Under the pieces are notes generated by a model. The model was not told the DNA's origin. It saw only the letters and a program-made list of their open reading frames with translations, and ran no database searches. The position numbers were made by a program, and so were the translations under genes. A stretch of DNA of 64,000 bases from Geosiphon pyriformis uo1 (Eukaryota > Fungi > Glomeromycota): contig JAAOMT010000523.1 in NCBI GenBank assembly GCA_016748015.1, positions 551,719-615,718 of the forward strand. The letters run 5' to 3'. Shown one piece after another: positions 3,001-41,694 of the stretch. Every line of letters starts with the position of its first letter. The first letter of the stretch is position 1.

Positions 3001-5545
3001 AACACTGCCTAATTTCCTGTGACTTTCAATATTGTAATAAGTGTGACCTCATTTACAATTCACCACCACACATGATCTACACAATTTCAGAGGAAGATGA
3101 ACCAATGAGCAACTGTGCATCAGAATCGGAATTAACTTTCAATTCTGATTCAAACTCCAACAACAATGATGACAAAAACAACAGTTCCAGCTTTGCTCAA
3201 TATAGCAATAAAAATAACAATGATTCGGACTCCAATTTAAACTCCGAAATATACATTGTGCTTCTTAATTTCTCCAAGAAACAGAAACTTAAATAGTTCA
3301 GTGATAATGGTAAAGGTATTATGTCAGAACATGCACATAATACTGATGCAGGGTTTGATTTGAAATATCCAGAGAAAGATCTCATCAAATTGGAACCACA
3401 TTTGTGCATTTGCATTAATCTGAAAATAGCACTGGAAATTCCAGCAACAACAATAGTTCAACTAGCATCCAGAAGTAGTTTAGCAAAAAAAGAGATAAAC
3501 ATCAGAGGAGGAATAATTAATGCAGAATATGTAGAAAATATCATTGCTATGTTACAAAATGATTCAGAAAAAGCATATACTATAGATCCAAACAAAAAGA
3601 TAGCACAGGCAATATTCCTATCTCTGGTGAAAATAGCTCAATTAGTGTCAGTGGGAAACAGAAAAGAATTAGGGATTACTGCTAAAGGGATACAGAGATT
3701 CAGATCAATGGGTAAAATAGATATACCAGTTAATATGGCAGAAGAAAAGGTTATTGACAAAGGAGAAATTATTTCAATCTGTCAAACAATTTCTATTCCA
3801 CCATATGACCAGTATAGGTTAACCATAAAAAGAGAAGTAAAGAATCAAGCTCAACTGTTTGAAGCAAAAGCTACCATTTGCAAATTAGAAGAGACTGGAC
3901 TTATTAATCTCTATATATCAGCCAAAAGCCCGAAAAACATCAAAATTCTCATTTACAACACAATAGGAAGTATTATTAAAATACCAAAAGGAACTATTAT
4001 TGGATATTTAACCACTGAAGTTGAGGATCAACCACTAAACCATATTCCGGATTTTCCACAACTTTGTGAATATGTAGACATCATATTACAAACTATATAC
4101 AGACAAAATGAATGTTATCTGCTCCAACCAGAACAATTGGAACAGATAAACATAGGAAATCTAGACTCACTTCAACAAATACAACTAAAGATGCTACTCA
4201 GCAATTTCAATGACATCTTTGCTAGTGAAAATGAATTTAGCCACACCAACATCATTCAGCATTAGATTAAGACTGGAAATGCAATGCCAATTAAACAAAA
4301 AGCATACAGAATACCACCAGCTAGCTACAAGATTATTCATCAAGAAATTAACTGAATGCTTGACAATAGGCTAATTCAACTATCAATGAGCCCATGGTCA
4401 TCACCAGTAGTACTAGTCCAGAAGAAAAATGTAAAAATCCATTTCTGTGTGAATTATTGAAAACTAAATGGAGTGACTAAAAGTGATAGCTATCCAACTC
4501 TAAAAATCTAAGAACTATTCAACACTTTTGGAGGAAATAAATGGTTCTTGATACTAGATTTAGATAGTGGTTACTGGCAAGTAGCCATGGATTCAGCCAA
4601 CAAAAAAAAAACAGCATTCACCACAAGAGAAGAAAATTTTGAGTTTGAAATCATGCCATTTGGCTTGATAAATGCTCTAGCAACATTCCAACAGCTCATG
4701 AAAATTGTCTATACTGGATTACTATGGAAATCAGTAGTTATATACTTGGATGACACCAATGTGTTTTCAAAAACATTTGATGATCATTTGCATTATCTCC
4801 AACAAATGTTTGAAGGATTAAGAAGAGCTGGACTAAAACTAAATGTGACCAAATGTTTCTTTGGAAAAACTGAACTCAAGTTTTTGGGACATGTGGTGAG
4901 CAAAGATAGAATCAAAACAAATCCAGACAAGATTAAAATTGTCAAGAACTTTTTAGTATTAAATAATCTTACAGAATTGAGAGCATTTTTGGAATTTGCC
5001 AGATACTACTGCTGCTTTATAAAAAACTTTTCCAAAATAGCTCAACTACTACACCAACTCCAAACAAAGAATGTAAAGTATAAATGGACAGGAACTCAAC
5101 AAGAAGCTTTTGACATATTAAGAAGAAAGCTTATTCAAGCTTCAGTATTATGTATCCAGACCACGGCAAACCATTCATAATTACCACTGATGCATCAAAC
5201 CAAGCATTGGGAGCAGTACTCTCACAGAAAAGACCCGATGGAAGAGAGCATCCAGTAGCTTATGCCAGTAGAAGTTTAAGTCCAGCTGAGAAGAACTATG
5301 GAACTCCAGCACTAGAACACTTAGCTATCTATTGGGCTGTCATCAAATAAAAGAAATACTTGAGCCAAAAGTTTGAAGTGTATACTGATCACAAAGGATT
5401 GATTTCAATTCAGAAATAAGAATTTGTAGACAATTGCCATGCCAGATAGAAAATAGAACTTTCACCATTCAATTATACAGTACATTATAAAAAAAGAAAA
5501 AACAATAGAAATGCTGATAGATTGTCATGAATAAGACAAATTTAA
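1..5545 (+). pseudogene. gag-pol: gag-pol of A (capsid, zinc knuckle, aspartic protease, Cys-rich domain, dUTPase, RT, RNase H)
   Basis: PIAKLEKFTG capsid motif; degenerate knuckle YHYCGKQGHLRINC (~1077-1117); LILDSRSAGS (from DSG); YLDD at 4743-4754; TTDAS..LGAVL and VAYASRSL RNase H motifs; ORF-track pieces share one frame apart from a shift near 5155; many nonsense codons. Confidence 0.93.
3321..3713 (+). pseudogene. dut: dUTPase domain in A
   Basis: DAGFDL, RSSLA, GGIINAEYV (from GGIIDAGY), IAQA and a degenerate RGxQGFGS motif. Confidence 0.88.
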
Positions 5546-5575
5546 AAACATTTCAACCCAAAAATATAACAAAAG

Positions 5576-6958
5576 ATGAACACACAAAAATACCAACAAT
5601 TTCAGCATTATATAAATACTCAATTGTTCAAAGAGAAATTATCTCAAAAAGAACAAAGCAACATAAAACAACAATCAAAATATTTTATCAATCATCAAAA
5701 TATACTTTACTAGAAAAACAGAAGAAATCCAGATCAACTAACTAGAGTAATCACAGAATCAGAGAAAGAAACAATATTATTCAACATGCACTCAGACCCA
5801 ACAGCAGAACATTTTTATAAAGAAGCAACTATGGAAAGAACCAGAAAAAGATATTATTGGCCATCAATGTATCCAAACATCATCCAATATGTTCAAAATT
5901 GTGATGCTTGTCAGAGAAGAGGAGGAACAAAACCCAGTAAACCATTAAGACCAATCAAAGTGGGACAACTATTTGATCGAATTGGAATTGATCTAGTCAG
6001 ACCATTAACAATTATCAGCAGAGACAACAGATATATTGCAGTAGCCATGGACTATCTTACTAAATAGCCAGAAGCAAAAACCATTCAAAGAGCAGATGCA
6101 GAACCTGTTGCTGAATTTGTTCATCAAGATTTGATCTGTCGACATGGATGTCCAAAAAAACTATTATCAGATCAAAAAACTCACTTTGTAAATAGAACAT
6201 TGACAAAATTAAGTCAAAGATTTGGGATAAAAAGACTATTATTATTACCATACCATCTACAAACAAATGTATTAATTGAAAAATTTAACAGAATATTGTG
6301 TGAAGCAATCGCCAAGATCAGTTAAAAAAACCAGGACAAATGAGATTTGGTTATACTATCAGTATTATTTGCTTATTGGACAATGAAGCAAGACACTATA
6401 CAAGCAATACTATTTGAATTAATATACAATAAAACAGCAATATTACCAGTTAAGATAGAAATACAAATATATCTAACAGAACCAATAACAGAAGATAATT
6501 TCCAAGAAACATTGTTGAGAAGAACATATGACTTAATAGAAACACTAGAAAACAGACAATGAAAAGCAGCTGATAACATTTAAAAGTCACAAGAAAAGCA
6601 AAAAAAATGACATGATAACCAACTACCAAATAAACCAGTTGAATTCAAGATTGGAGACAAAGTACTATTATATTGTACCAAAGCAGAAAAACAATGGAGT
6701 GAAAAATTTGATCCCAAATGGGATGAACCATTTTACATAGAAAAAATTTTTGGAAATAAAACTTATAAATTAAGATGGAACAACAAAATCTTAACCAAAG
6801 CAGCACATGATGATTAACTGAAACCATATCACCAGATAGCATTATCATCTACCAATAACATTTCACAACTGGGAGTACAAAGAATAATAGTTCAACCAGA
6901 TAAGATTCCACAAGATTTGGAATCAATAATAGTTATTGAACCAAACATGTCAAATTAA
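5576..6958 (+). pseudogene. int: Integrase ORF of A (separate ATG)
   Basis: MH..AEHF..CDAC HHCC zinc finger, IGIDLV, LSDQ, LIEKFNR (D,D35E) and KWDEPFYI GPF-type motif. Confidence 0.92.
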
Positions 6959-7012
6959 ACAACCAAAAGAGTATATAAAGACACAGTACACATGACAAAA
7001 TCAACCAAGAAA

Positions 7013-7648
7013 ATGAAAATACCAGATTATATTCACACTTTAGCTCAACAATTGTTCCAAGCCTTAAGTAAACAACAGTTAGATATAGAAATTGTTATTA
7101 ACAACCAAATAATTTGCTATTGAAACATCCAAAAAAAAATAAAAAATACACCATACTAGCAACCACCAAAGAACAATAAAAACTGGACAGATAACTTAAT
7201 AGAAAAAGTAAAGAACACTTTTGAGAAAATACCTGTTATGGTATCAACAGAAAAGCTTACAAAAGAAAATTGGAAGCAATGAACAGAACGACTTCCAATA
7301 TCATATTGCTACTACCAGTTAGGTCAAAAATTAAATATTCAGGAGTTGTATATTAACAAATCCAAGAAAATATTTAACCAAAACATAATACAACAAATTA
7401 AAAAATTTATTGGAAAAAAACCGAATTCAACACTATATGTTAGAACAATATACTGACTATACAACATATTTCAAGACTATTCAGAAATACTGTTACACTC
7501 TGACATGGAAACCATAATCATTAATCAATAAGGAAGAATGAACAATACACAAGTAGAAGACATAAAAAACAGAGTCAAACAAACAATACTTGAAAAAGAA
7601 GTATTAGAATTAATTCAAAACGAAAATTTTGATGGAGCTCAATATTAA
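7013..7648 (+). pseudogene. ORF3 of A, hypothetical ~211 aa protein
   Basis: ATG 7013 to TAA 7648 in frame, with internal nonsense codons; homologous ORFs in B, C, D1, D2, F, G; TATATAA at 6972-6978. Confidence 0.8.
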
Positions 7649-7662
7649 AAAAAAGAAAATAA

Positions 7663-8515
7663 TATTATTCATAGAAAAAAGAAAACAGATATAGAAAAAT
7701 AGTAAACCAATAGAAGAGTAGTAGTTAGCACATGAGCACATTGCTTAGCAATATAAAGCAATGTTAGAAATCACAGCACATTGCTCAGCAATATAGAGCA
7801 ATGTTAAGAAAATATGACATATTGCTTAGCAATATGAGCATTGCTTAAGAAATTATAGCACATTGCTCAAGAATGTGAACAATCTTGTAGAACCCAAATT
7901 ATGTATATATAGCAATAGCATTAGAAGTAAAAAGAGCAGAATCCTTCTATTAGAAAACTTTTCAGTTTAGATTTGATCTAAGCAACCTTCCATTCACAAA
8001 TATTAATAAATAATTATTCACTATCTCAATTCACTCTTCACTATCAATCTTTCATGTTGATAGTAATTGATACTTAACTATACTGGAACAATAGCTCTTG
8101 ATTATGACTATTGACGGAATACTAACTTGCAATTGCTTTTCATTATTTCATTATTTTCTTTTATTTTCTTTTATTTCTTTTGTTATTTCTTTGGGTTTTA
8201 TTAAATTGATTAAGAATTAAGCACTAAGATACAGACGTCATAGAGACTGGTAAAAATCTTGTGAAATAAGAGTAGAACACTTATAAATTTGAAGATAGCT
8301 TACCAGGAGAATTACTGGCCACTATACTGAGAAAGAAATTCGATAGAATTGTGATTCCAAGAGGCTACTGAAAACTACTATTAAATCTCTGTTCATTATA
8401 CAAAAAACTTCACAACAAAATCTTCAGATAAAACAACATCTTCAGATATTACCAACTAATCACCAAGTTATGGATTTGTTATTTGACTTAAGACCCTAAA
8501 TAATCATCTGTAATA
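7663..8515 (+). repeat. 3' LTR of A (family-A LTR)
   Basis: Follows PPT; ends tattattc/tgtaata are decayed TGTTA..TAACA; homologous to LTRs at 53351-54151 and 56046-56966. Confidence 0.9.
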
Positions 8516-9300: not shown

Positions 9301-10342
9301 TGTTATGGATAAACTTAATAAAGTAGAAAGATGGTAATATTTGGTGCTCTCAATTATTGGTAAGACATGTTTCACATAATTTTGGTAGCTTAATCTTGAT
9401 TATCAGTCTTTGAAGGTCTTATTTTATTGGTTGTGAATTTATCTGTTGAGTTTTTTGGTTATAAGACACAAAGTTTTGGTTCTTGCTAATTGCAACTTCT
9501 TATAAAGATGAGCTTTCTTTTCCGAGCTAATAAGTGCAGTTGTTAGGGTCTAACATTGTTTTTTTGTCTTTTTGGTAAGCTATTAAGATAATGTTAATAT
9601 CCAAAAACCTAGAAGAAGCTTCTCTCTTTTACTAGGCTATCACAAAATCTATTCCTAGACAGTTGATTTTACTATGTTGCTGTTCCACAAGAAAAAAAGA
9701 AAAAAAAGAAAAAGAAAATAAAAAAAAAGAAAGAAAATAAAAGAAAAAGATAAATTAGTATTGTTAATTGTCATGATCAAGAGCAATTGGTCCAAATTGT
9801 TAATAGTTTGAAGCAGTTATGCTAAGAGCATTTGTTCTAGAACAAAAGTATGAAACAATGATTAATTCACGTAAATTTCACAAAGTTCAAGAACATAAAT
9901 TTATGATTCAGATTTCTTAATAATTGATTTATTTCAGAAGATGAATATAAAATATAATAAATAATAAAGGAATATGGATATTTGATTCTTGTTTAGTAAT
10001 TCATATCTATTTGTCTGTTTTTCTACCTTCTACAACTACTTGCTTTTATACATTCTTTTGGTTTTGCAGAATTGTTTCTGATTGTTTTGTTATTGCTAAT
10101 TATTGCTTTGTTATTTCTGTTATTGTTTTGTTCTTCTATGTTATTACTAGTTATTCTACATTATAACATGTTATCTGGTGTTATTATATGTTATTCTGTA
10201 TTATTCTACATTATAACACATTAATCTGTGCTATCCTAAGTTATAACATATTATCCAACATTATTGTATGCTATCCTGTGTTATGTTACATTTTGGTTAT
10301 GTTTTTTTATAATTTTGGATCAATTTCTTTACTTGGATAATA
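9301..10342 (-). repeat. 3' LTR of B
   Basis: Begins next to the PPT (tattatcc, decayed TGTTA) and ends CCATAACA; tandem ttattctacattataaca-type repeats at ~10085-10295. Confidence 0.82.
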
Positions 10343-10356: not shown

Positions 10357-11087
10357 TTAGAATTGAGCTCTTGTGAAATTGTATGTATCTGTTTCTATGT
10401 CTTTTTTTGTGTAATGTTTGATGGTTGTGTTAAGTATTGTTTTTTGTAGGTCTTCAAACTGTCAATTGATAATTTGTCTTATGTTTTTAACTGTTATTGT
10501 CTTTATAGATCCATACAACAGTACATTTGGACAAAGTTAGAAAGTAGTATATAATTGGTATGCTGCTTTGTAATGTAGGGTCAGGTTGCTTTTTCTTATG
10601 AATTTTTCTACTTGTTGCATTGCTTCTTTGTTGAAAGTTTTCTGGCTAAAGTTTCATATGGTGTCTTTAAGTTTAATTGTTTACCTATTTTGTAGAACCA
10701 ATAAGCTGAAAAAAGTCTTTCTTTCCATTCTTTTGTGTTGTCTGGTGTCTATTCCCCTGTTTCGGGAAGATCAATCTTATAAGCTAAAGCTTCTTTAATT
10801 TCTTTGAGTTTGGGAACCAAGTATCTTCTTTTATAAACTTTTTCTCATTCCTTCACTCTTTTTTCAAGCCATGCCCAAGACAATTTAATTTCTTTTTGTA
10901 AAATTTCTTTCTCAGATGGAGTGTAGAGATGAGAATGATTAATTTTAGTTGAACTTATGCCCATCTCTTTCTTGCTTCTATCTTTATAGCATATTTTTTT
11001 TCTATTAATTGTTACTTCTATTTGAGGAGAAAATTGTTGAATTGCATCAAATAGTTGTTTCGAAAGTTGTAAAATTTGATCTGACAA
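10357..11087 (-). pseudogene. ORF3 of B
   Basis: SDQILQLSKQLFDAIQQF..IEVTIN..WKERLFSAYWFYKIGKQL..YKAAYQLYTTF..RAQF*, aligns by eye with ORF3 of A. Confidence 0.78.
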
Positions 11088-11151
11088 GTTTATGTTGAAA
11101 GTTTTATTGTTTTTTGCTGTTTTTCAAATGCTATATATATTTAAATTCCTT

Positions 11152-12541
11152 AATTTAATTTGCTGTACATTGTCTATGTTTTAATGACAATGATTGGTTT
11201 CAGATCTCATAATATATTTTCTGGTCTGATTAATGAAATTTGTATTCCTAGCTGAAGTACTGATAATAATAATTTCTGTTTTACATGATAAATTTTTAAC
11301 CAATTTCTATGCATTACTTTTTTTAAAATTCTGTCTTTCAATCGTAATTTGTAAGCTCCATTTCCTAAAGCTTCATGTATGTGGAATAGACTATTCCACT
11401 TTGGGTCAAACTTTCCACTCCACTGTTTTTCAGCTTTTGTACAATATAATAGTACTTGGTCTCCAATTTTAAATTCCATTAGTTGTTCTAATAGGCGATT
11501 ATTATGTTTTTTTTTTTGTCATTCTTGAACATAACTAATATTGTCAGCTGCTGTTCTTTGATTGTCTTCCAATATTTCTATTAGCTGATACATTCTTTGG
11601 TATAAGATAGCTTCAAAATTTTCTTTGTTGATTGTTTTTGTTGAGTATAATAGTATTATTTGTTCAATTAGTAACATAGTTTTTCTTTTATAGACTAGTT
11701 TAAATGGTGTGAACTAAGTTGTATTTTGTTTCAATGTTCAGTATACAAAGAGTACAGAAGATATAAATAAGTCTCATTCTTGTTTGTTTTCATGACTTAT
11801 TTTTGCTAGTGCTTTGCACAGTGTTTAGTTAAATTGTTCTATTAGTCCATTCATTTGTGGGTGGTATAGTGACGATAAGAATTGCTTTATTTCAAACTGT
11901 TGACTTAGTTCAGTTAGTGTATTATTAATGAAATGTGTTCCTTGATCAGATAATAATTCTTTCAGACATTCATGTTGGCAAATTAGGTCTTAATACACAA
12001 ATTTGGCTACTGTTTTGGCATCGGCCACTTAGATTGCTCTGGCTTTTGGCCATTTTGTAAGATAGTTTATGACTACAATAATGTAACAATTTTTTTTGAA
12101 TGTTATAAAGAGAGAACCAACCAAATCAATCCCAATTCTATTAAATGGATTTCCAACTGGAATGGGTTAAAGTGGTTTTGTTGTTCTGGCTCCTCTTTTT
12201 TGCTGACATAAGTTATAATTGAGCATGTATTCAAAAATGTCTTTGTATATTATTGGTCAATAGTATAAATTTAGGGTTTTTTTGAGGATAACATCTTTGT
12301 TAAAGTGTTTTGTGGTTGGATTAGAATACATACTGTGTAATATAGTTTCCTTTTCATTGTTCTTTATAACTCATTGTGGAGTGGGACAGTTTCAGTGTTC
12401 TCATCAATATAGTTGGTTGTCTTAAATAAAATAATTTTGGGCTTGTTTTTGTATGGTACTTTGTTTATGTTAAGATAATATCTCTTTGAAACATAGTGTT
12501 AATAGATACTAATGTAGTCGTTAATAAGTGAGTGTGTTTAT
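11152..12541 (-). pseudogene. int: Integrase ORF of B
   Basis: IGIDLVG, LSDQGTHF and KQWSGKFDPKW motifs; start ATA (decayed ATG) 10 nt after the RH stop. Confidence 0.85.
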
Positions 12542-12551
12542 GGGTCTGGGA

Positions 12552-14336
12552 TTAGGTTTGTGGCATCTTCAACAAACTGTTAGCATTGGTGTTCTTGGAT
12601 TCTTCTTTGTAATAGACTTTAAGTGGGAATTGCTGCAAATAAGTACTTCATCTTGCATATTTTTCTTTCAGTTATGGGTTATTGAGTAACCAAATAAGTC
12701 TTTTATGATCTGTATATAGATCAAATAGTTGACTGAGATGGTGTTTCCACGTTTGTACTGTCCAATAGATGGCAAGACATTCTAGATCTATTGTGCTGTA
12801 GATTTTTTTAGCTGGATTTGTGCTATGACTAGCATATGTAATTGAATGTTCTCTGTCATCTGGTTTTATTTGTAACATGATGGCTCCTAGTGTGTTCTTT
12901 GAGGCATCTGTAGCAACAATGAAATGTTTAGTAAAATTGGAGTAGATTAATATTGGGGATGTAATCAATCACTGCTTAAGATAGTTGAAGACTTTTTGTT
13001 GATCTTTCTTTTACAGATATGGCACATATTTGAACAACAAGTGGTGAAGAAGTTTTGCAATAGCTGAAATCCCTTTGACAAATTGGCAGTAGTATTTTGT
13101 CAATCCTAAAAATTCTTATAACTTTTGAAAGTTGATTGGAGCTGAGAAATCTTTAACTTTTTGGATCTTATCTAGATTGGATTTGACTCTGTCTTTGCTA
13201 ATTACATGTTCTAGGAATTTCAACTTGGTTTTCCCAAAGAAACATTTCTTAGGATTGAGTTTTAATCTGGCATTTTAAAGGCATTCAAAGACTTGTTAAA
13301 GATGGAGCAAATAATCATCAAATGTTTTAGAGAATATGTTTGTGTTATTTAAATAAACTATAACTGATTTCCAAAAAATTTCTTTGTACACAGCATCTAT
13401 AAAACATTAGAATGTGGCAAGAACATTGCAGAGTCTAAAAAGCATTACATTGAACTTGAAGTTTCTATCTTGAGTGGTAAATACTGTTTTTCCTTTATCT
13501 TTTGGATCCATTTCGACTTGTTAATATCTGCTGGCTAGGTCTAATAATAAAAACCATTTCTTTTTTCCTAGATTGTTCAAGATTTTTTGGATGAAGGAAG
13601 TGAGATAACTATCTTCTTGGGTAACACTATTTAATTTTTGGTAATCTATGCAAAATTATATCTTTCCATTTTTCTTAGTGACCAAGACTATTGGGAAAGA
13701 CCAAGAGCTTAATTATTTCTTAATTAAGCTGTTATTAAGTATTCATTGGACTTCTTGTTTGATAAGATTGTCACCAGATAGAAGTATTTAGTAAGCCTAT
13801 TGTTTAATAGATTGAATGTTTCCCATATTAATCTGATGCTTTACAATGTTGGTATGTTCAAACTCATTTTCACTTGCAAAGACATCAGCATATTAATTTA
13901 AAAAAATCTTGAGTTGTATTTGCTGCAAAATACTTAAGTTTCCAAGATTCAATTTATTGATCTCTTCTAACATTAACAAGTAACTTTTTTTTGGCAAGTT
14001 TTATACTTATAAGGTAATATTGCAAAATAAGAATAGCTGTGCAAAATCTGGAATGGGCTGGGGTTTTTCAGAATATTGGATGTCTGGTGAGATGAAACCA
14101 ATGAAAGTCTCTTCAGAGATTTCAATTACACCTTTATGGGGTTGTGGATGGGGATTTTGAAGTGTTTATAAACTTTAATCAGTAGATATAAGTTAGTAAC
14201 ATCAGCTAGGGAACAGATTTCAGGTTCAGCTTCAAATAACAGGGCTTAATCTTGGATTTTTTGATTCATCTTGAGGATGTATTGTCAATAAGAAGGGATG
14301 GAAATAACTGTGTTGGTATAAATAAGTTTTATCTGG
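12552..14336 (-). pseudogene. pol: RT-RNase H portion of B pol
   Basis: CIDYQKLN, LDLASRY and VATDAS..LGAIM..ITYAS motifs; ends NANSLLKMPQT-TAA. Confidence 0.87.
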
Positions 14337-15174
14337 TATTACAGGTGATTATTTGGGGTCTCAAATCAAATAACAAACCCGTAACTTGGTGCTGGATTGA
14401 TATTTTGGCATTGATTTCTGAAGATTCTGTTGATTTGAAGGTTTTGTTGTGGAGATCTTTGTATAATAGACAGAGATTCAGTTGTTGTTTTAGTAGCCTC
14501 CTGGAATCACAATTCTGTCGAATTTTTTTTTAGTGTGGTAGCTGGTAATTCTCTTGGTAAGCTATTCTTAAATCTATGAGTGTTCTATCCTTGTTTTATG
14601 GGTTTTTTACCAGTCTCTATGACATCTGTATTCCAGTGCTTAATTTTTTAATCAATTAGTAAATAATATCAAAGAAAATAAAAAAAAATAAAAAATAAGA
14701 AATAAGCCAAGGCAATAATGGTTAGTATCCTGTCAATAACCATGATCAAAAGCTATTGTTCTAGTGTGATTAAGTATCAATTACTATCAACATAAAGTGT
14801 TGATAGTAGAGAGTAGATTTGAGATAAAAAATAATTATTTATTGATATTTGTGAGTTAAAAAATCACTTAGATCAAATTTAAACTGAGAGGTCTGTTTTT
14901 TTTTATTTTTAATGCTACCACTATATATACATAATTGAAATTTCTCAATTCCTCAATACTTTACACCAGAAATTCTAGAATTTCTGGAATTTTGCAATTC
15001 TTTTGAGAAAAATTTTGGAATTCTGGAATCCTGCAATTCTTTGTATAAGAATCTTGAAATTCCTGAAATTCTGCAATTTCTCTGAAAAAAATCCTGAAAT
15101 TCCATATTTTACTACAGTTACTTCTGATTGACTAATTTATATGTTAATTTACTTTCTATATTCTATAAGTAACA
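14337..15174 (-). repeat. 3' LTR of C
   Basis: Starts TGTTACTT after the PPT and ends gagaccccaaataatcacctgtaata; U3 carries ggaattcc/gaatttc-type repeats. Confidence 0.88.
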
Positions 15175-15188: not shown

Positions 15189-15807
15189 TTAATATTAAGC
15201 TCCATCAAGATCTCCTAATTCTAATTCTCTGTCTTTAAGTATTTTTTGAACTTTTTTTCAAGAATTACTTGTGCTATCTTGTTCTGTAATTTTTCAAATT
15301 AAATATTTGTTATTTTTCCCATTTGGTTAATGGTAATGAAGTTTATTTCTGGATTGAGTAAGATTTCTGAAATTCAGTGTGTAGCCAATAAATGGCTTTT
15401 GCTTGTATGGTTAAATTGTTCTTCCTCATAAATTGTTTCAGTTGTTGCAGTATTGTTGTGTCAAATAATTATTTTGTCTTATTCATATACAAGCTCTGAA
15501 TGTTCAAGTGTCATCCCAAATAAAAGTAACAAAAGTTTTTTGGAAATTGTTGTATCTACCAATTCCAAGTTTCTATAGTCAATTCTTGATATTGGGTGAT
15601 TTTTGATTGTGTTTCTATTGCCAATTTTACTTTTGTAATTATTTTGTTCATAGTATTCTCTGTTTTTCTCTGTATTTTATTTTATGGTTTTTTTCTGGTG
15701 TTTGTGTATTTGATAGTTTGTTGGTTGATTGTGATTTCCATCTCTTGTTGTTGTATTAGTTAAAAAAATTGTTGTGCTAGTGAGTGAATGTTGTTAGTAA
15801 TCTCCAT
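15189..15807 (-). pseudogene. ORF3 of C
   Basis: MEITNNIHSLAQQFF..MEITINQQTIKY..GA(Q)Y*; TATATAA upstream at ~15843-15850. Confidence 0.75.
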
Positions 15808-15862: not shown

Positions 15863-17245
15863 TCAATTTTATGTGTTTGGTTCAATGATTATAATTGGTT
15901 TTAGATCTTGTGAAATTTTATCTGGTTTGACTAGTATTCTTTGTACTCCTAATTGTGGAATATTAATGATAGATAATAATACTATATGGTGATATTGTTT
16001 TAGTTAATTACCATATGCTGCTTTGGTTAAGATTTTGTTGTTTAACTTTAATTTATAAGCTTCATTTCTAAGAATTTCTTCTATGTAAAATGGTCTGTCC
16101 CATTTGGGGTCAAATTTTTCATTCCATTATTTTTCTGCTTTAGTACAATATAAAAGTACTTTGTCTCCAATATTGAATTCAACTGGTTTCTCTAGTAGTT
16201 GGTTATTATGTATTTTTTTTTGTTTTTTTTGTGACTTTTGGATGTTATCAGCTGCTCTTCACTGTGTGTTTTCTAGTGTCTTCATTAAGTCATATGTTCT
16301 TTTTAACAATGTTCTTTAAAAATTCTCTTCTGTTATTAATTCTGTTGAATATGTCTTGACTTCTATTTTAACTGATAATATTGCAGTTCTACTGTATATT
16401 AATTCAAATGGTGTTGTTTGTGTAGTGTTTTGTTTTATTGTCCAATAAGCAAATAATATTAATGGTATAATTAAATTCTATTTGTCCTGGTTTTCTTGGC
16501 TGATTTTTTTAATAGCTTCACACAATGTTCTATTAAACCTTTCAACTAACTCATTTGTTTATAGATAGTATAATAATGATAATGGTCTTTTTATTTCAAA
16601 TCTTTGACTTAATTCTGCCAATGTTCTATTTACAAAGTGAGTTTTTTGATCTGATAGTAGTTCTTTTGGACATTTGTGTCAACAGATCAAATCTTGATGA
16701 ATGAATTCAGCAATAGATTCTGCATTTGCTCTTTGAATGGCTTTTGCTTCTGGCCATTTAGTGATATAGTTTATGGCTACTGCAATATATTTGTTGTCTC
16801 TGCTGGTTATTGTTAATAGTTCGACTAAGTCAATTCCAATACAATCAAATAGTTGTCCCACTTTGATTGGTCTCAATAGTTCACTGGGTTTTGTTCCACT
16901 TTTTCTTTGACAAGCATTACAATTTTGAACATATTGAATAATGTCCAGATATATTGATGGCCAATAGTATCTTTTTCTGGTTTTTTCTATGGTTGCTTTT
17001 TTGTGAAAATGTCCTGCTGTTGGGTCTGAATACATGTTGAATAATATTGTCTCTTTTTTTAGTTTTGTGATTACTCTGGTTGATTGATCTAGATTTTTTT
17101 TGTTCTTTTAGTAAAGTATATTTTGATGGTTGATAAAATATTTTGATTGCTGTTTTATATTGTTTTGTTCTTTTTGAGATAATTTCTTCTTGAACAATTG
17201 GATATTTATATAATATTAGAGTTGTTGGTATTTTTGTATATTCAT
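15863..17245 (-). pseudogene. int: Integrase ORF of C
   Basis: MYSDPTAGHF..CNAC..IGIDLV..TKWPEAKA. Confidence 0.9.
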
Positions 17246-17276
17246 GTTTTGTTATATTTTTGGGTTTAAAATGTTT

Positions 17277-20121
17277 TTAGATTTGTTTTATTTGTAACAA
17301 TCTGTCAGCATTTCTGTTTTCTTTTCTTTTTTTATAATGTACTGTATAATTAAATAGTGAAAGTTCTATTTTTCATCTAACATGACAATTATCTACAAAT
17401 TCTTGTTTCTGAATTGAAATCAATCCTTTGTGATTGGTATATGCATCAAACTTTTAACTCAAGTATTTTTTCTATTTAATAACAGTCCAATAGATAGCTA
17501 AGTGTTCCAGTACTGGAGTTTTATAGTTTTTTTCTGCTGGACTTAAGCTTCTACTGACATAAGCTACTGGATGTTCTCTTCTATTTAGTTCTTTCTGCAA
17601 TAGTACTACTTCCAATGCTTGGTCTGATGTATTAGTGGTGATGATAAATGGTTTGCTGTGATTTGAATACATCAACACTGGAGCTTGAATAAGCTTTCTT
17701 TTCATTGTGTTGAATGCTTTTTGTTGAGCTTTTGTCCATTTATATTTTACATTCTTAGTTTGTAAATGATGAAGTAGCTGAGCCAGTTTAGAAAAGTTTT
17801 TAATAAAATGGTAATAATATCCAGCAAATTCTAAGAAGCTCTTAGTTCTGTCAAGTTGGTTGGTATTAAAAAATTCTTTACTATTGTGATCTTATCTGGA
17901 TTCATTTTGATACCATCTTTGCTTACAACATGTCCCAAAAACTTGAGTTCTGTTTTTCCAAAGAAGTATTTGTTGGCATTTAGTTTCAATTCTGCTTGTC
18001 TAAGTCTTTCAAATACTTGTTGGAGATAATACAAATAATCATCAAATGTTTTTGAGAACATATTGGTGTTATCTAAGTATACGATTACTGATTTCTATAG
18101 TAGTCCAGTATAGACAATTTCCATAAGTCTTTGGAAAGTGGCTGGAGTATTTATCAAGCCAAATAGCATAACTTTGAATTCAAAATTCTTTTTTCATGTT
18201 GTAAAAACTGTTTTCTCTTTATCTTCTAGTTTCATGGCTACCTACCAATAACTGCTGTCTAAGTCCAAAGTTGAGAACCATTTTTTTCCTCCAAAAGCAT
18301 CAAACAGTTCTTGGATCTTTGAAATTGGGTAACTATCTCCTTTTGTTACTCCATTCAGTTTTCAGTAATCCACACAAAAGTGGATTTTTCTATTTTTCTT
18401 ATGGACTAGTACCATTGGTAATGACTATGGACTCATTGATGGCTGAATTAGCCTGTTGTCAAACATCTGATTGATTTCTTAACAAATAATCTTATGGCTA
18501 GCTAGTGGTATTCTGTATGCTCTCTGTTTAATTGGCATTGCATCTCCAGTTTTGATTTAATGTTAGATGATGTTAGTTCTGCCAAATTTGTTTTCACTGG
18601 CAAAGATGTTATTGAAATTGTTGAGTAGTATTTTAAGTTGCATATGTTATAATGAGTCCTAAATTTTCCAAGTTCATCTGTTCCAATTGTTTTGGTTAAA
18701 GCAGATAACATTTTTTTCGTCCATATATAATTTAAGATGTGATATCTACATATCTACACAATTATAAAAAGTCTAGAATAGTATTTGGCAGTTGGTCTTC
18801 AATTTTGGTGGTTAAGTATCCAATAGTAGTTCTTTTTGGTATCTTGATGACATTTCCTGTGTTGTTGTAAATGGTGATTTTGATGTAACTGTAGTTCTTG
18901 ACTGGTATGTGTAGATTGACTAATCCAATTTCTCCTAATTCACAAAGTGTTACTTCTGCCTTAAAAATCTGAGCTTGGTCTTTTATTTTTCTTTTTATAA
19001 CTATTATGTACTGGTCATATGATGAAATGGAAATTGGTTGATAAGTGAAGATAATTTTTCCCTTGTCAATAATCTCTTCTTCTGCCATATTGACTAGTAT
19101 ATTTATTCTATCCATTAATTTGAATTCTTGTATCTCTCTTGTTGTTATCCCTAATTCTTCTTTGTTTTCCACTAATACTAATTAAGCTATTTTAACCAGA
19201 GACAGGAATATTGCCTATGTTATCTTTTTGTTTAGATCTATAATATATGTCTTTTCTGAGTTATTTTGTAGCATGGCAATGATATTTCCTACATATTTTG
19301 CATCAATTATTTCTCCCTTGATGTTGATTCCTTTTTTGGCTAAGCTACTCCTAAATACTAACTAAACTATTGTTGTTATTAGAATTTCCAGTGCTATTTT
19401 GAGATCAATGCAGGTGCATGAATGGGGTTCCAATTTGATGAGATCTTTTCTCAGATATCTTAGATCAAACTCTACATTAGTATTATGCACACGTTTTGGC
19501 ATAATAGTTTCATTATTATCACTAAACCATTTAAGTTTCTGTTTCTTAGTGAGATTAGGAAGTGCGATGTATGTTTTGGCACTTGAATCAGAGTTTGAAT
19601 TATCATAACTTTTGTGGTCATTTGGAACAGAGTTGGAACTATTATTTTTGTCATTATCATTGTCAGAGTTTGAATCAGAATTGAAAGTTGATTTTGATTT
19701 TAATGTGCAGCTGCTGATTGGTTCTTCTTCTTCCAAGATTGTGTAGATCATGCATGTTAAATTGTAAATGAGGTCACATTCATTACAATATTGGAAGTCA
19801 TATGGAATCAAACAATGGTCATATAGTCTTGTGTTTATTTCTTTTAAACATTGTTCTTGCTCTTTTCTTGTTGGTGCTAAGTTTTAATAGTGCTCATGAA
19901 ACTCTTCTGGACTTGTTTCTATGTTGAGAAAAACATCTGGATTTGGGATAAGTATGATGTCAACTGGTTTTGGGGGATTATTCTTAATTTCTAGAATTTT
20001 GCTGGGTATGGTTCCTTTGACTTTGGCATTTGCCATTTTCCAGATTTCATCTTTGTCATGTGAGTAGCCATTCAAGCAGGTTATTGCTTGGTGCCAGGCT
20101 GCAGTAATAGGAGTACTATGA
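17277..20121 (-). pseudogene. pol: pol of C: Cys-rich tail, dUTPase, RT, RNase H
   Basis: ORF-track pieces FQYCNECD, VEFDLRY, KFLGHVVSKDG, HPVAYVSRSL. Confidence 0.9.
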
Positions 20122-22494: not shown

Positions 22495-23475
22495 TGTTAT
22501 CAGTAGAATTTTAGCTATTAATTAGCAGGAAAATTACCCTTATAATTCCTATAATTAATTAGTATATTAATATCATTCCAAATTATCATTTATTATTTAA
22601 TCAATTATCACATATCACGATTTAATTAAATAATCCAATTAGTATAACAGAAAGTAAAATGATCAAATTACACAATACCCTGAACTTTGTAACATTCAAA
22701 AATTCGCCAAAATTTACAAAAATTCGCCGAAATCTATAAGAAATTCGCCGAAATTATGAATAGTTCACCCAAATTAATCAATAGTTCAGCAAAATAACTT
22801 GTAGTCCATCAAAATGTATCTTTAGTTTGCCAAAATTTGAGCAAAGAGAAAAAGTGCAAGTTCATAGACTAATACTACAACAAGTTGTAAAAAAGAAGAG
22901 CTTTTTTCTTCAAGAAAATGTATCTTACTTTAGATTTATCACTTAGAACCATTCCTACACACACAAAAAGAAATAAATATCAAATAATTCGAAAAACCAA
23001 ATTCTTTAATTATTGTACTTGGAAAATCCCCAAAACCCAATTAACGTTTTGAAATTGATTAGCTACCAATTTCAGTAAACTGTTAGTGACTCCAGGCCTG
23101 TATAGAAAACGTTTCTCTTAACAGAATTCAATTTCTTTTACTTTTCTTTTATTTTCTTATTATAATAATTAGGATAGCCTACAGACAAGATTCTTATAGA
23201 AGAGTTGACTTTCACAACAAAGTAACTACACATTTTTAGTAAGCTTCCAGACGAGCAATTTTTGGGAAAGAGTTGACATTTACTATAACATAACTACATA
23301 AAATAACTGGCAAAAAATTGGTCATTCTACTTAGAAGCCCAGCAGTTCAAATTATAGGAGATAATTTGAAGATAAATTCAGTTACTGGAGGTCCAACTAC
23401 TTCCTGGAAACGTGAATTCATAGCAAATTAACATTAACAACATTCAAGAAAAGAGACCAAAAACCACCAGTAAGA
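22495..23475 (+). repeat. 5' LTR of D1
   Basis: Near-identical to 31417-32406, 34983-35970 and 43791-44798. Confidence 0.95.
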
Positions 23476-23495
23476 TTTGGTGCTCTTTCACGGAA
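23476..23495 (+). promoter_or_regulatory. Primer-binding site (TGGTGCTC...)
   Basis: TGG-initiated, 2 nt after the LTR end; complementary to a tRNA 3' end ..GAGCACCA; tRNA identity not determined. Confidence 0.8.
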
Positions 23496-23522: not shown

Positions 23523-26500
23523 GTGGCAACCACACCAGACACAACAATTCTAGAGTATTATCAGTTAATTTACACCCATTGCAAGCAGAGATTTAACATC
23601 CCAGACAGAATTGAAATTGTTGAAAGAACACTCTACCAATATATTAAAAACTGTATTAACAATTATCTTCTTGGAAATTACAACATTTCAGAAGTTAGAA
23701 GCAATCTTTACAATAATCTAGTGCACTATTCACAATTAAGAACTGAAGATCTTAACAGTGAAACACTTGCCATCTACTTTCAAGAACTCAATTACAACAT
23801 TATCAAGTATTGTGAAGAAAAATACCCAGTACAGTCTAAATACTCTCTTGACTTTGAATCAGAAACAGAAACAGACAACAAAGGCAAACAAAAAGTGAAA
23901 CAACACTCAAAAACTGCTCCAAACACTCCAATACTACCAAAGACAACTGCCAAACACTTGCAAACACCTGAACAAGAAACAAGTGTCAAATTACCACTTT
24001 CTATTACACCATTTCCAATTTCACTTGCTCGACCACAAACACCAAATTCATCACTTAACCATTTTTTCAGACCAGAAGATTTTCAGTCACCTAGAAATCC
24101 TACTTAACAGCAGAAACCTATATTAACAAGCACTAATATTATTGAATACTTGCAGAAAAACGAAAGTGATCATTCAGAAAATTTGGAAAGTGAAGAAACT
24201 GAATCAGAACAAGGAGAAGCCACAGAAAATAAAAAGGAAATAACAACTGCTTACATTGCAAAAATTCCAGAATTCACTGGTGAAGACAATAATACCAGTC
24301 CTCAAGAATGGCTTGACAAAGTTCAAAAAGCAGGAGATACAAATGGTTGGATTGCAGCAAGAATGCTCAAAGCAATTCTCTACATTCTCCAAGGAACAGC
24401 AGAAGAATGGTTTGAAAATTTAGAAGAACCATTTGAAAACTGGCAAGTATTCAAAGATGCTTTTCTACAACAATTCACCGACAACAATATCTCTATCACT
24501 CTCAGAAATTGCTTTTGCAATATCAAACAAGAAACATCTGAAACTGTTATGACTTATCTTGGAAGATTTAACAAACTTCTCAGATGAATCCAACAATTGA
24601 AAACCAATGACTACTATTCTGATGCTCAAATTCTGAATTAGTTTATAGCAGAGTTAAAAGACAAACTGATTAAGAAAGTCTGTCCACATGCTCCAGCAGA
24701 CTTAGCAACTGCTATTAGACATGTAAAAAGCTATAAAATAGCAATGGAAGAAGCAAATCACAGCAAACTTGTAAACTTTACAATTAGAGAAACCAGTTCA
24801 GCAGCTGAGAAGAAGATAGACCAACTCACAAAAAAGGTTCAAAGCTACTTCACAAACCAACAATAACAGCAACAACAACCACAAAGATATCAACCCCTAC
24901 AATGATGCAACCAAAACAATTTTGGATCACCATCCAACAACCAACCTCAAAATTGTCATTATTGTGGAATTCCAGGACACTGGAAACAAGATTGTAGAAA
25001 ATTACAAAGAGACCAACAAAACAGAAGTAATCAATGTTACTCTTCACCACAACAATTTTATTACCAATCTCCCCCACCAACTTATTATTTACCAAGACCA
25101 CAAAATCAAAACAGTTACTATCTACCAGCTCTACAACCAATGCAGCAACAATATCAGCAACTTTTACCAATTCAGCCATATCAGACACCACCCACTCAAC
25201 AATATCAAGTACCAGCAAGAAGATTGATTTAACATAACCAATTTACACTCCAAAATCAATTGCAGAGTAACAACAACAGAATCAATCCAAATAACCAGTT
25301 GGTTCCCCGAAATTCTGGTCAGCAAAGACCCAATTACTATCACACTCAATCCAGTTATCTTACAATACCAGAGGAATCAGATTTTCAACAAACTGCACTT
25401 TCTGAAGGTAAAGTTGCAGCACCAAGATCAAACCCTTCCAACCACAACATTCTACCAGCTCAAATTGCCCAAAATGCCAATTTGTCAGATATATTTCTAT
25501 TTGAATTTGAAGCAAATAAATCACCATTTCTGTTTAATAATACAGCAGTTAATCAACAGAAAGCAATTACTGCTATGTACACAGAAGCTATAGTGGAAAG
25601 AAAACTCATTCGCTTAATCTTAGATAGTAGATCGGCTGGAAGTATCATTACTTACCAGCTGATACAACAACTCAAACGAAATGTAAACAGACCAGCTCAA
25701 ACAGTTATTGTCACAGCTGATGATATGAAGAAGACTCCAGTAAGAGAAATTGATAATTTCCTCTTTTCAATTGATGGAATCACCATTCCAGTTAAAGTTC
25801 TTGTTATGGATGCACCCCAATACTAAGCTCTAGTCAGAAATAATTGGCTTCTTAAGGCCAATGCAAACCTGAACTGGGAAATTCAAGAACTTAAAATTTT
25901 ATATCAAGAACAATATACCATAGTACCTGCAACTTATGGTACCTTTAACAAATGATCAGAAAAAGCTCTAATATTTGAATTTGAAGAAGAAAAAGAAATG
26001 CCACTTACTGAAACCTACATGGCTCTTGGATCACCATCCAATTGGGCTGAGGAAACAGAACCAGAGATTTTCGAAGAATCAAGAAGATGAAAGAAAGTTA
26101 GATATTCTACACCAGAATCACGAAAAGAACCACCATACATTCCACTAAAATGCAAAGATTGCAAAAAGAAGCTTTCATCTATGGGAGCCTGTATTTCCCC
26201 AGAAAAGGAATACAAAACTCACACTTGCTACTTCTGCAAGGCATGCCATAAAGAATAATTTGGATTCCCAAAGAGAAGTGGAAAATGGGACAAAACTCCT
26301 TGTCTTACTTGTGGAGAAAGACTACCAGAAGAATGCAATTGGATTGATGTAGCAATGAGAGGAGGAGTATGTAATTAAACCTGTCAATATGCTCTATCAA
26401 TTTCGGAAAAAGTCAGAAGAAAAACACTATTTGATGCAGCATACAACAGTGCTTTCAATAAATGTTACCACTACCCTCATAATGCTGAAATAATTTTTGA

Positions 26501-29147
26501 CTTAGCAATGGCATTGATCAATAGAGCCACCCAAGAAGATGTTTGCCAAATGAAAGAAGCTAAATACATTGAGTATACTATGGAATTAGCTGGATTTGAT
26601 TATGAAGATAAAGTAGAAACCTACCACCAAATTGCAAGTCACACATATCCGACCAAAAAAGCTCAAATTCAATGATTAGAGCAAATAAACATTCAATTGT
26701 GTGAAGAATGTGTTATGCCTTGTGATGACCAATGGTGTTTAGAATGTTATGCTCTTAGCATTCCTCTGCTGGATGAGAATGATGAAAATGAAATCGAATT
26801 TGGAGTATTTAAACTAGTAGAAAAACTACCAACCACCCCATTCTATCTTCTTAAAAAGCAACTACCTCTACAACTTAAATATTTTGACAACCATGGCCAA
26901 GGAATCAGACCAGAAAAAACACACAAAATTGATGCCAGATATGACCTAAGATACCCAGAAAAAGATACTTTGGTTCTCCAACCAAAGTCTTTGACAAAAA
27001 TCAATCTCAAAATTGCTCTTGAAATTTCACCTAAAGCAATAGTTCAAATTGCCTCCAGATCATCATTGGCAAGCAAAGGAATCAATATTAGAGGAGGAGT
27101 TATAGATGCAGGATACATTGGAGATATTATCATCATGTTGCAGAATGTAACAGACAAACCATTTAAGATTGAACATGCTGAAAAAATTGCTCAAGCAATT
27201 TACCTACTCTTAATCAATATTTCGGGTCTACAATCAGTTAACAACAGAGAACAATTGGGAAAAAGTGAAAGAGGAATTCAAGGTTTTGGTTCAACTAGAC
27301 GATTTACAGTTCTAGTAAACATAGCTCTTAAAATACAAAATGAATCTCATCAGATTCTTCAACTTCCCCAACCAATTACTATTTCACCTTTTGGAGAACA
27401 TCACGAAATTTACACTTGCTCAAAACCCACTACTACCCAACAAATCTTTGAATCCAATAAACAAATCTGTTTGAAGCATGAAATCTCAATTCCAAACATT
27501 TATATTTCCAAAGGAATAAAAAAATTTTGAGTTACATTTTACAATCCCAATAATTACTCTATTGTTTTATTAAACAAATTAGAGATTAGAATCATACACA
27601 GCAATATTTTTCAAGATGAAAACCCTCAAATTGTCTCTAATTTTATCGAAATTGTAAGGCACACTCTACTCCCAAATCCAAATATCATTTCCATCACTGA
27701 AAACTACCATCTTTTGAAAGAAAAACTCTCTTATATCAACATGAGTCTCTTAGAACCTCAACAACAAAGACAATTGAAACAATTGATAGCTGAATTTCCA
27801 AATATATTTGCAAAAAACAACAATGATCTAGGAAAAATGGATATTGTTCAACATCAGATCCATACAAAAGATGCTCCACCAAAATGTCAGCAAGCTTACA
27901 GAGTGCCACCTGCCAGTTACCAATTCATCAGAGAAGAAGTCCAGAGAATGCTTAATAACGGATTGATTCAATCATCAAGAAGTCCTTGGGCCTCACCAGT
28001 AGTCTTTGTCAAAAAGAAAAATGGAAAAATCAGATTTTGTGTTGACTATTGCCAATTAAACAGTGTGACAATTGGAGATGTCTACCTTCTTCTAAGAATT
28101 GATGACATGTTAGATGCTTTAGGAAAAGCCAAGTTTTTCTCAACTTTGTACTTAGAAAGTGGCTACTGACAAGTCGAAATGGACCCAAAAAACTGACCCA
28201 AAACAGTATTTACCACCCAAGGAGGAAACTATGAGTTCAATGTTATGCTTTTTGGACTCTGCAATACACCAACAACATTCCAATGACTCATAGATGTTGT
28301 ATATAAAGAACTCTTATGGCAATCAGTAGTTGTTTATCTTGATAACACTAATGTATACTCACCAAGCTTTAAAGCCCACCTCATTCACCTGCAAAAAGTT
28401 TTTCAATGATTATGGAAAGCAAGATTAAAGTTAAACATTGAAAAATATCACTTTGGAAAAACAAGCTTGATTTTTCTTGGACACATAGTTAGTAAAGATG
28501 GAGTCAAACCAAATCCAGGAACAATTAGTGCTGTCAAAAACTTTCAAACTCTCAGAAATACCACTGAACTACAAGGATTTATAGGATTAGCCTCTTACTA
28601 TCAAAAATTCATAAAAAAATTCTCAAAAATTGCCAAACCACTCAATTATCTTACCAACAAAAATGTGCCATACAAATAGACTGAAGAACAACAAAAAGCT
28701 TTTGAAACTCTCAAAACAAAATTGACAACAGCCCCAGTTCTTGCTTACTCAGACTTCAACAAACAGTTCTAATTAGCCACTGATGCTTCACACATAGTAT
28801 TTGGTGTCATTTTATCACAATTAGATGAAAATGGGCAAGAACAAGTCATTGCCTATGCTAGTAGAACACTCAAATCAACAAAACTAAAATATGGCTCAAC
28901 TGAATTAGAAGCTGCTGCAGTCATCTGGGCTCTTAAACATTTTCAACAATATCTGAAGAATGGAAAAGAATTTAACATTATAACAGACAATATTGGTCTT
29001 AAATGGCTCAATAAAAAGAAAATTGAACAAAGTACCAAACAGTCTTGATGGAATGACTTCTTAGCAGACTACAAATATATTGTACATCACAAACCAAGAA
29101 AAATACACACTAATGTTGACAGCCTCTCAAAGATGAAACAATATTAA
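23523..29147 (+). pseudogene. gag-pol: gag-PR-Cys-rich-dUTPase-RT-RNase H of D1, single reading frame
   Basis: ORF pieces at 23523, 24150, 25260, 26697, 27714, 28467 and the terminal TAA (29145) share one frame; CHYCGIPGHWKQDC knuckle at 24954-24995; LILDSRSAG; LATDAS. Confidence 0.94.
26900..27300 (+). pseudogene. dut: dUTPase domain in D1
   Basis: All five trimeric dUTPase motifs: DARYDL, RSSLA, GGVIDAGYIG, IAQA, RGIQGFGST. Confidence 0.93.
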
Positions 29148-29203
29148 TACCAACATCAACACCAATAAACTGAACAGCAGAACAAACAACAAAATCAACA
29201 ACA

Positions 29204-30588
29204 ATGAATCCAGAAAACTACAACAACATCAAAAACTATTTGGAGACCCTCACCATGCTAGAAAATTGGTCCCCAAGTAAAAAACATCGATTACAACACC
29301 AATTCAAACAATATTTTATACACCACAACAAAATCTATTACAAAAATCGTAAAAACCCAAACCAACCACTCAGATTAGTACAAGAAAATGAAAAAGAAAC
29401 AATTTTATATAACATGTACACAGATCCGGCTTCAGCACACTTGGAAAGAGATGGAACAATTCAAAGAACTCTTGAACATTATTTTTGGCCTTACATGCAA
29501 AAAGACATTTGATAATATGTAGAATCTTGTGATAGTTGTTAAAGAAGAGGAGAAACTCACTCCACAGAACCTTTAAATCCAATCAAAGTTGGACAACCAT
29601 TTGACAGAGTTGGAATTGATTTAGTCGGATTATTATCTATCACAACCCAAGGAAATTACTATATTGCAGTAGCAGTAGATTATCTTACCAAATGACTTGA
29701 AGCTAGAGCCATCCAAAGAGCAGATGCAAAATTAGTAGCAAATTTTATCTATGAAGACATTATTTGTAGACATAGATGTCCAATTGAACTCTTATCTGAT
29801 CAAGGAACACATTTTGTGAACAACTTGATACAAGAAATTTGTGAATGATTCAATGTCAAAAGACCTCTATCATTGCCTTATTACTTTCAAACAAATAGAC
29901 TTGTAGAATGTTTCAACAGAACATTGTGTAAATCATTGGCCAAAATCTCAACAAATTTTGAGCAAGAATGGGATATCTTTATTCCATCAGTGTTATTAGC
30001 ATACAGAATACTTAAACAAGATACTATGAAACACACACCATTTGACCTTACTTATGGAAGGACAGCAACATTACCAATTAATTTCACAGTAAAAACATAC
30101 CCAGTGCAACCAATTAATAAAGAAAACTTTCAAAAAACACTTCAAAGAAGGGCCTACACTCTTCTCAGTACACTGGAAGGAAAAAGAAGAATAGCAGCAA
30201 CTCACATTGAACATTCCCAAGCTCAACAAAAAAAAAGACATGACAACAAATTACCACCCATTATCAACGAATTAAAGTTGGAAATAAAGTTCTCTTACAT
30301 AGAACTAAGGCTGAAAAACAATGGAGTGGAAAATTTGAAAACAAATAGGACAGACCATTTTATATTCACGAAATTTTAGGCAATGAATTATACAAGTTAA
30401 GACTTGATGACAAAATACTAGCAAAAGTTGCACATAGAGACAGATTGAAACACTATTATTTCAGAAACAATCCTGAAACATTAATTCCACAAATTGGTAC
30501 ATATTCCTCTTTAATTAATTCTGAAGATATTCCCCAAAATTTAGAACCAATAATTATAATAGAACAACAACCAAACTTAAACACTTAA
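29204..30588 (+). pseudogene. int: Integrase ORF of D1 (different frame from gag-pol)
   Basis: MNPENYNN..; VGIDLVG, LSDQGTHF, LVECFNRTLC. Confidence 0.92.
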
Positions 30589-35970: not shown

Positions 35971-36017
35971 TTTGGTGCTCTTCTACAGAAATAACACAGC
36001 AACAACAAACTTCAAAG

Positions 36018-41626: not shown

Positions 41627-41694
41627 TACCAACATCAACACCAACAAAACACCAACAAACTTAACAGCAGAACAAACAACAAAATCAACAACAA

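Follow-up and report, generated by a model that had tools for sequence, protein, structure and literature searches.

In a 64,000-nucleotide stretch of Geosiphon pyriformis DNA, which we call the window, a reading frame at positions 7013-7648 lies between the integrase and the polypurine tract of an LTR retrotransposon, and it raises the question of whether it is a gene of the element and, if so, what its protein does. The window itself consists of decayed Ty3/Gypsy elements that carry dUTPase, nested into one another and lying in both orientations (22-37% GC, CpG observed/expected 0.15, TpG/CpA 1.3). Pfam recognizes pieces of gag, protease, dUTPase, reverse transcriptase (RT) and integrase in Gypsy order, and we assigned the elements to Ty3/Gypsy on the basis of gag, protease, RT, RNase H and integrase lying between LTRs, together with LTR pairs, a polypurine tract and a TGG-type PBS-like site. 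Nested insertions dominate the window; one element, D2 (34983-44796), lies within 34588-45312, inserted in the 3’ LTR of element F, and splits that LTR, and element C has no 5’ LTR within the window. The dUTPase domain lies within pol in A-like and D-like elements (3297-4265 and 26676-27530), and the PBS-like sequence right after the 5’ LTR is similar in both groups (23477-23495, 35971-35990, 53330-53350). In 6/6 window elements examined (5480-5660, 12440-12620, 17170-17350, 29080-29260, 41560-41740, 46930-47110), as well as in a metagenomic locus described below (L001, 740-810), the RNase H frame closes with a stop, and integrase follows in a frame of its own beyond a short A/C-rich spacer. 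Such a split pol is unusual for Gypsy elements and would call for a separate RNA or reinitiation to produce integrase.

The first-pass annotation had proposed that a frame of about 210-240 codons (ORF3) occupies this position in three families of elements, namely A/C/F/G, B and D1/D2. The copies in the window are as follows.

7013-7648, plus strand: A-type ORF3 of element A; 211 codons with 5 in-frame stops; 83% identical to the intact protein P0124 (211 residues)
10357-11093, minus strand: B-type ORF3 of element B; one frameshift plus stops; intact relative P0165; own U3 array at 10081-10264
15189-15807, minus strand: C-type ORF3 of element C; broken by stops and a frameshift; then a 39-base U3 array at 14970-15092, different from that of A
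30731-31436, plus strand: D-type ORF3 of element D1; one frameshift; reads into the LTR; 20-base U3 array at 31621-31715
43103-43810, plus strand: D-type ORF3 of element D2; 6 stops; U3 array at 43995-44070
45326-45541, minus strand: A-type ORF3 of element F; internal deletion, about 420 bases missing
55616-56032, plus strand: A-type ORF3 of element G; 3’ two-thirds only, 4 stops; A-type U3 array at 56126-56217

A homologous gene is thus indeed present at this place in all seven elements, but not as an open frame, since every copy is interrupted by stops, frameshifts or deletions. The frame at 7013-7648 nevertheless stands out, with 5 stops against 12-19 in each of the other five frames, and integrase is equally broken in the same copies. 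Intact proteins exist for the A type (P0124), for the B type (P0165, 244 residues) and, in large numbers, for the D type, where 84 of the 120 proteins listed are of intact length (200-249 residues). The grouping into three families had to be revised. ORF3 of element C shares only 45% amino-acid identity with that of element A, while their integrases share 75%, and we therefore distinguish four ORF3 types in the window.

Because these copies decay by transitions, we split substitutions into transitions and transversions when estimating selection. For transversions, the pN/pS ratio of ORF3 is 0.39 (A-C), 0.32 (A-G) and 0.20 (D2-D1), with small counts for the latter two pairs, compared with 0.81-6.2 when either shifted frame is read and with 0.13-0.43 for integrase; the corresponding transition ratios are 0.61-0.88 for ORF3 and 0.73-1.04 for integrase. 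Pooled transversions number 29 at codon position 2 versus 72 at position 3 (p 2e-5). This shows that ORF3 is under purifying selection, like integrase, and the neutral dN/dS that might have been feared did not appear. Between types, ORF3 diverges much faster than pol. As a same-strand frame after integrase and before the polypurine tract, found in seven window copies and L001 and kept by selection, ORF3 belongs to the sense additional ORFs (aORFs) of LTR retrotransposons.

Identity between the ORF3 types is only about 20-37%, yet their profiles align significantly, as the first-pass annotation implied. HHalign of a D profile against the A type gave a probability of 84 (E 7.8e-6, 171 columns), BLASTP of the B pieces against the A type gave 3e-9 and 1e-17, and intact B-type P0165 found A in the window at 6.5e-25 and D1/D2 at 1e-9/1e-8; the D profile against the B 5’ piece alone gave a weak match (probability 5.8). 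The motifs picked out by eye at the outset proved to be aligned columns across types: an N-terminal I..L/I.Q.L...L...I.I....I.Y, then Y[YF].[IL]G..L, N148, R/Q-L-Y..F and a late G. A late “DGAQ” at the ends of the A, B and C proteins was discarded as a protein motif; as the D type and L001 read the same DNA in another frame, it is likely a cis element. The ORF3 stop abuts the polypurine tract in A, B, C, F and G, and in the D type and the metagenomic types the frame continues through the tract into the LTR. A GGAGCTCA-like DNA motif right before the tract (window 7630-7668 and equivalents; L001 3085-3125) is common to all types, read in different frames, and is likely a cis element for plus-strand priming.

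The relatives of ORF3 lie almost entirely within the same fungus. All four matches of the A type, and all 120 listed of the 195 matches of D1 ORF3, are G. pyriformis proteins. A D-only profile run against 1.84 billion representative proteins returned 35 matches, including a further G. pyriformis type (P0158/9, E 1e-9), the B type (E 9e-5 and 5e-4) and two metagenomic proteins (E 1e-15 and 9e-12), and it missed the A type. A profile built without D members, run against 6,264 candidates, gave 66 matches (64 from G. pyriformis and two metagenomic) and recovered the D members at E 1e-20 to 6e-16. No named protein outside G. pyriformis was matched in these HMMER searches, of which the exhaustive one used the D-type profile. 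The first-pass annotation had likened the pattern to helical domains common in hypothetical proteins of Glomeromycotina; the Atlas clusters ranked highest for ORF3 are from Mucoromycota (0.94 and 0.93, with low recognition) and are possibly the ORF3 family itself. No related locus was found in viral contigs, prokaryote genomes or one metagenome scan, and tblastn against phages gave a single match at E 0.4; a second metagenome scan yielded at least one, L001. This locus carries RT-RNase H, integrase, a 316-base spacer, an intact ORF3 of 230 codons, a polypurine tract and the start of an LTR, and as the order is the same, the slot between integrase and polypurine tract is conserved outside the families of the window. 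Residues 40-143 of P0158 also gave a weak tblastn match (E 6e-5) to the gag-pol of D1 (24988-25311), which is probably compositional. Many G. pyriformis gene models among P0133-P0218 are decayed ORF3 copies fused to integrase tails, gag, dUTPase or RNase H of neighbours. These chimeric models are annotation artefacts that inflate the gene count, and hundreds of annotated “hypothetical genes” of G. pyriformis are copies of transposon ORF3 (195 matches for the D type alone).

The first-pass annotation had seen no signal peptide or transmembrane segment and had taken ORF3 for an accessory protein unlike env, and this view is upheld. The maximal 19-residue Kyte-Doolittle hydropathy is 0.44-1.33 in 8/8 ORF3 proteins, with no hydrophobic or signal-like stretch, and the proteins have 1-3 cysteines. 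Neither Pfam, searched with 38 members, nor PHROGs gave a family at cut-off, only scattered weak matches, and the Pfam results contain no RNA-binding, known suppressor, env or chromodomain family. Taken together with purifying selection, this makes ORF3 an accessory gene that selection maintains in the Gypsy elements and that encodes a soluble protein. Each of eight intact proteins has a basic 20-residue patch (+5 to +7), located in the linker at 36-59 in six D-type and metagenomic proteins; the pI is 8.8-9.7 for the Geosiphon types and 5.2-5.9 for three metagenomic proteins, which are acidic overall. Conservation is highest at aromatic or aliphatic columns and at G113 and N148, and these positions form no catalytic set.

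AlphaFold2 with a diverse alignment of 38 sequences predicted a mainly helical protein (mean pLDDT 83, pTM 0.66), in which a helix and a two-strand hairpin at the N-terminus (11-42) are joined by a loose basic linker to a compact helical core at about 85-210 (pLDDT mostly above 90); a D-only alignment gave a poor model (pLDDT 43). The PDB gave no match by sequence, Foldseek with the better model gave none at E≤0.001 in the PDB or viral sets, and a wide fold search (VIA) reached a best Z of 4.0 (4.1 in a second look), with 0/48,161 chains at Z≥5. The CHD1 C-terminal domain (Z 3.9, rmsd 3.7, 79 aligned), sigma F (Z 3.8, rmsd 2.5, 56 aligned) and ParB/KorB/Spo0J domains (Z 3.3-3.5) are all at background level and were rejected. 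Judged from the predicted model, whose N-terminal part was barely covered, the fold searches show neither a match nor a new fold. The N-terminal domain of YhcG, DUF1016_N (PF17761), has a similar arrangement of Y..IG..(helix)..G..N..Y over about 50 residues, and both profile comparisons picked this register; the likeness is not significant (HHalign probability 1.7-2.0%, P 0.024-0.029 with nine sequences; 3/38 ORF3 members match, best E 0.037) and is at most a lead.

What the protein may do is suggested by the DNA next to it. The relevant features of element A, all on the plus strand, are listed below.

5546-6958: integrase, a frame of its own beyond the stop of RNase H, with 54 bases between its end and ORF3
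6972-6979: TATA-like box, candidate internal promoter of ORF3, 41 bases before its ATG
7000-7896: block of different ancestry in A and C, comprising ORF3 and U3 up to the TATA box (from the transversion profile)
7647-7662: polypurine tract, beginning inside the ORF3 stop codon
7663-8515: 3’ LTR (alternative loose end at 8513)
7735-7867: U3 tandem array of 41-base period, with three 13-base palindromes at 7740, 7780 and 7821
7904-7912: TATA-like box of the LTR, common to A and C

In trees, the integrases of A, C and F group closely (100/99), while ORF3 of C falls outside the A clade. Along the A-C alignment, transversions per base stay at or below 0.04 through integrase, rise to 0.17-0.25 from 7000 to about 7900 and then return to 0.035-0.058; in counts, these are 14/400 bases at the integrase end, 191/900 in 7000-7899 and 24/620 from the TATA box onward, with Fisher p values of 4e-19 and 2e-24. 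The edges of the block lie 13 bases before the ORF3 ATG and just before the LTR TATA box, and inside it a transversion-free gap (7617-7676) covers the end of ORF3 and the polypurine tract. No such block is seen in A versus F (maximum 0.078) or in D2 versus D1 (maximum 0.052). Synonymous transversions between A and C are also ten times higher in ORF3 than in integrase (0.228 versus 0.022, p 5e-11), and thus the block reflects different ancestry rather than fast protein change, with pol and TATA-R-U5 shared by A and C. We have seen one such swap, that between A and C. Contigs of run X1, which may come from the window’s own sample, reach every one of the 30 bins in the A stretch and likewise in the C stretch, and one contig with 21/179 letters differing bridges the spacer and the start of the C-type ORF3, so that the C arrangement is probably a multi-copy family.

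Every ORF3 type is accompanied by a U3 tandem motif of its own, which lies shortly before the TATA box of the LTR. With motifs chosen by eye from the same 13 LTRs in which they were then counted, the A-type half-site occurs 10, 8, 3, 6, 5 and 2 times in six A-like LTRs, twice in B and never in C, D or L001; the C motif occurs eight times in C and 1-2 times in D, the B motif 11 times in B and 0-2 times elsewhere, the D motif 3, 3, 3 and 1 times in D LTRs only, and the L001 motif six times in L001 only. The A, B and C arrays contain perfect palindromes and zero CpG. It needs to be mentioned that U3 repeats are also a common feature of LTRs whose elements have no transactivator. Upstream of ORF3, TATAWAWR is found at -41, -42, -42 and -46 in A, C, F and B (4/7 upstream regions, two independent lineages), against a background of 0.02 per 30 bases. 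D1 and D2 have no TATA-like box and instead show a pyrimidine tract plus AG 12 bases before the ORF3 ATG; in L001, a TATA-like box occurs only at -126, and neither a box nor a splice-acceptor-like tract is clear.

We hypothesize, at a rough probability of 0.45, that ORF3 is an element-specific transactivator or anti-silencer which would bind the U3 repeats of its own element. In this scenario, ORF3 would be made from its own short RNA (from the TATA-like box in A, C, F and B, or through the splice-acceptor-like tract in D), enter the nucleus via the basic linker, and, probably as a dimer, bind the palindromic units of U3 that lie shortly before the LTR TATA box; its binding may switch on elements of its own type or shield them from silencing. 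ORF3 and U3 would then form a key-and-lock cassette moved by recombination onto a shared pol backbone. We infer every step of this scheme, from expression to binding. A regulator, a role that the first-pass annotation had also put forward in the form of a transactivator or anti-silencing factor, is favoured by the ORF3+U3 block and by the type-specific U3 repeats as read from sequence comparison, and as near-sister elements differ just in ORF3 and the adjoining repeat array, the protein may well switch on its own element. On the other hand, ORF3 and U3 are neighbours, and one crossover after integrase together with a strand transfer near R carries both, whatever ORF3 does, so that their coupling is not independent evidence and adjacency alone could explain it. 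The acidic character of the three metagenomic proteins also speaks against the scheme, as do the missing TATA-like box of D1 and D2 and its distant position (-126) in L001. Of the two modes, protection from methylation has little target in the U3 of A, B and C, because their arrays have no CpG. As a side observation, D LTRs (22495-23470, 31417-32400, 34983-35970, 43791-44796) retain CpG (observed/expected 0.43-0.58, versus 0.07-0.14 in D pol), with 3-5 of the 8-11 CpGs per LTR falling in U3 repeats, a slight hint on methylation loss.

The chief rival to a DNA-binding activator is an RNA regulator of the Rev/CERV kind, which would bind element RNA and control its splicing, export or translation, and which we regard as unlikely. 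As integrase and ORF3 are separate frames, the elements would need several RNAs, and both the recurrent RNase H/integrase split and the acceptor-like tract of D1 and D2 agree with such a regulator, for which CERV of Cer1 is a precedent (PMC10309623). The block itself fits an RNA target too, since the element RNA includes the U3 of the 3’ LTR, and Atlas feature matches include RNA-binding helical proteins at 0.90-0.93, a range reachable by shuffled sequences. What weighs against it is that the repeats are short DNA-type palindromes immediately before the LTR TATA box, where enhancers are usually found, and that Pfam matched no RNA-binding family. Alternatively, ORF3 might assist integrase or Gag in a structural or targeting role, as an integration-site tether, in nuclear entry or in movement between nuclei in coenocytic hyphae, and so replace a missing chromodomain: the integrase tail is SH3_Tf2-1-like, no chromodomain family was matched by Pfam in integrase tails or ORF3, and the window’s insertions sit inside other elements. 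Yet the C-type ORF3, so divergent from that of A, goes with an integrase that differs from that of A mostly by decay transitions, a pairing that speaks against close and specific cooperation with pol and makes this role quite improbable in our view.

We give even less credence to a general counter-defence protein, for instance an inhibitor of RNAi or of a methyltransferase, without a sequence-specific target. The strong CpG loss in the window and the fast divergence of ORF3 relative to pol would suit it, and in Rhizophagus, CG methylation and small RNAs are described as acting on Gypsy copies (10.1101/2021.03.30.436303); it gives no reason, however, to expect a separate U3 motif for each ORF3 type, and no known suppressor family was matched in Pfam. 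As for an envelope-like protein or a functionless passenger, the env slot of ORF3 and its 7/7 broken copies would be in keeping with either, but both are largely refuted: the former by the low hydropathy, the few cysteines and the lack of a Pfam env family, the latter by the in-frame pN/pS, the bias between codon positions and an integrase as broken as ORF3 in the same copies.

The slot of ORF3 has precedents. Sense aORFs between pol and the 3’ LTR are known in plant and other LTR retrotransposons, with functions given in that source as mostly unknown (PMC7264820), and ORF3s have been reported in rotifer LTR retrotransposons, lineages of which also carry dUTPase (PMC5408684). As in the aORF-3S accounts of these two sources, the Geosiphon frame has the same slot and orientation, occurs in all family copies and is conserved like other element genes; unlike them, it has no transmembrane segment, GDSL esterase, DEDDy exonuclease or Pfam match, and it moves as a block with U3. 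Foamy virus Tas/Bel-1 (PMC8670036) offers a working analogy for the favoured activator: a gene near the 3’ LTR, with a candidate promoter of its own and a proposed U3 target. ORF3 differs in occurring without env in a fungal Gypsy element rather than a retrovirus, the comparison was by Pfam families (38 members, no match), and its U3 binding is a prediction. Tas is described as acting also on its own internal promoter (PMC8670036), whereas the A-type palindrome is absent, by eye, from the 180 bases before ORF3. VANC of VANDAL elements is likewise an element-encoded accessory protein; it diverges from family to family, and each family has its own tandem repeat (PMC5735166), and the one U3 motif per ORF3 type resembles this co-variation, confounded by adjacency. 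VANDALs, however, are DNA transposons, there is no sequence match, and most U3 arrays next to ORF3 lack CpG; anti-silencing is suggested here by analogy. CERV of C. elegans Cer1 is a non-env accessory protein of an LTR retrotransposon made from a separate RNA (PMC10309623); set beside ORF3 by description, it differs in acting on RNA export and in its position and host. In the literature searched, which was mostly open-access, we found no description of the ORF3 family, its range or the ORF3+U3 block. Sense extra ORFs in this slot are already known; the ORF3 family and the ORF3/U3 block appear to be new within the literature covered.

An ORF3 family without a Pfam match is thus conserved in no fewer than five types from G. 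pyriformis and in two metagenomic ones. Some of its members are intact, its structure is modelled with confidence, and the short U3 motifs, one for each type, provide a ready set of candidate targets, so that cognate versus non-cognate binding is directly testable. We propose more tentatively, and at rather less than even odds, that Geosiphon-like fungal Gypsy elements carry the gene for a sequence-specific activator or anti-silencer of their own LTRs. The protein would belong to an undescribed helical family, and its gene would be exchanged with the U3 array as a key-and-lock cassette on a common pol backbone. LTR elements are reported to make up 41.2% of the G. pyriformis genome (PMC11952901), and an element-encoded activator would offer a mechanism for LTR expansion under CpG methylation. 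If true, the proposal would mean that self-regulation in the style of complex retroviruses and diversification in the style of VANC occur in a fungal retrotransposon, and this may have driven the LTR expansion of the genome.
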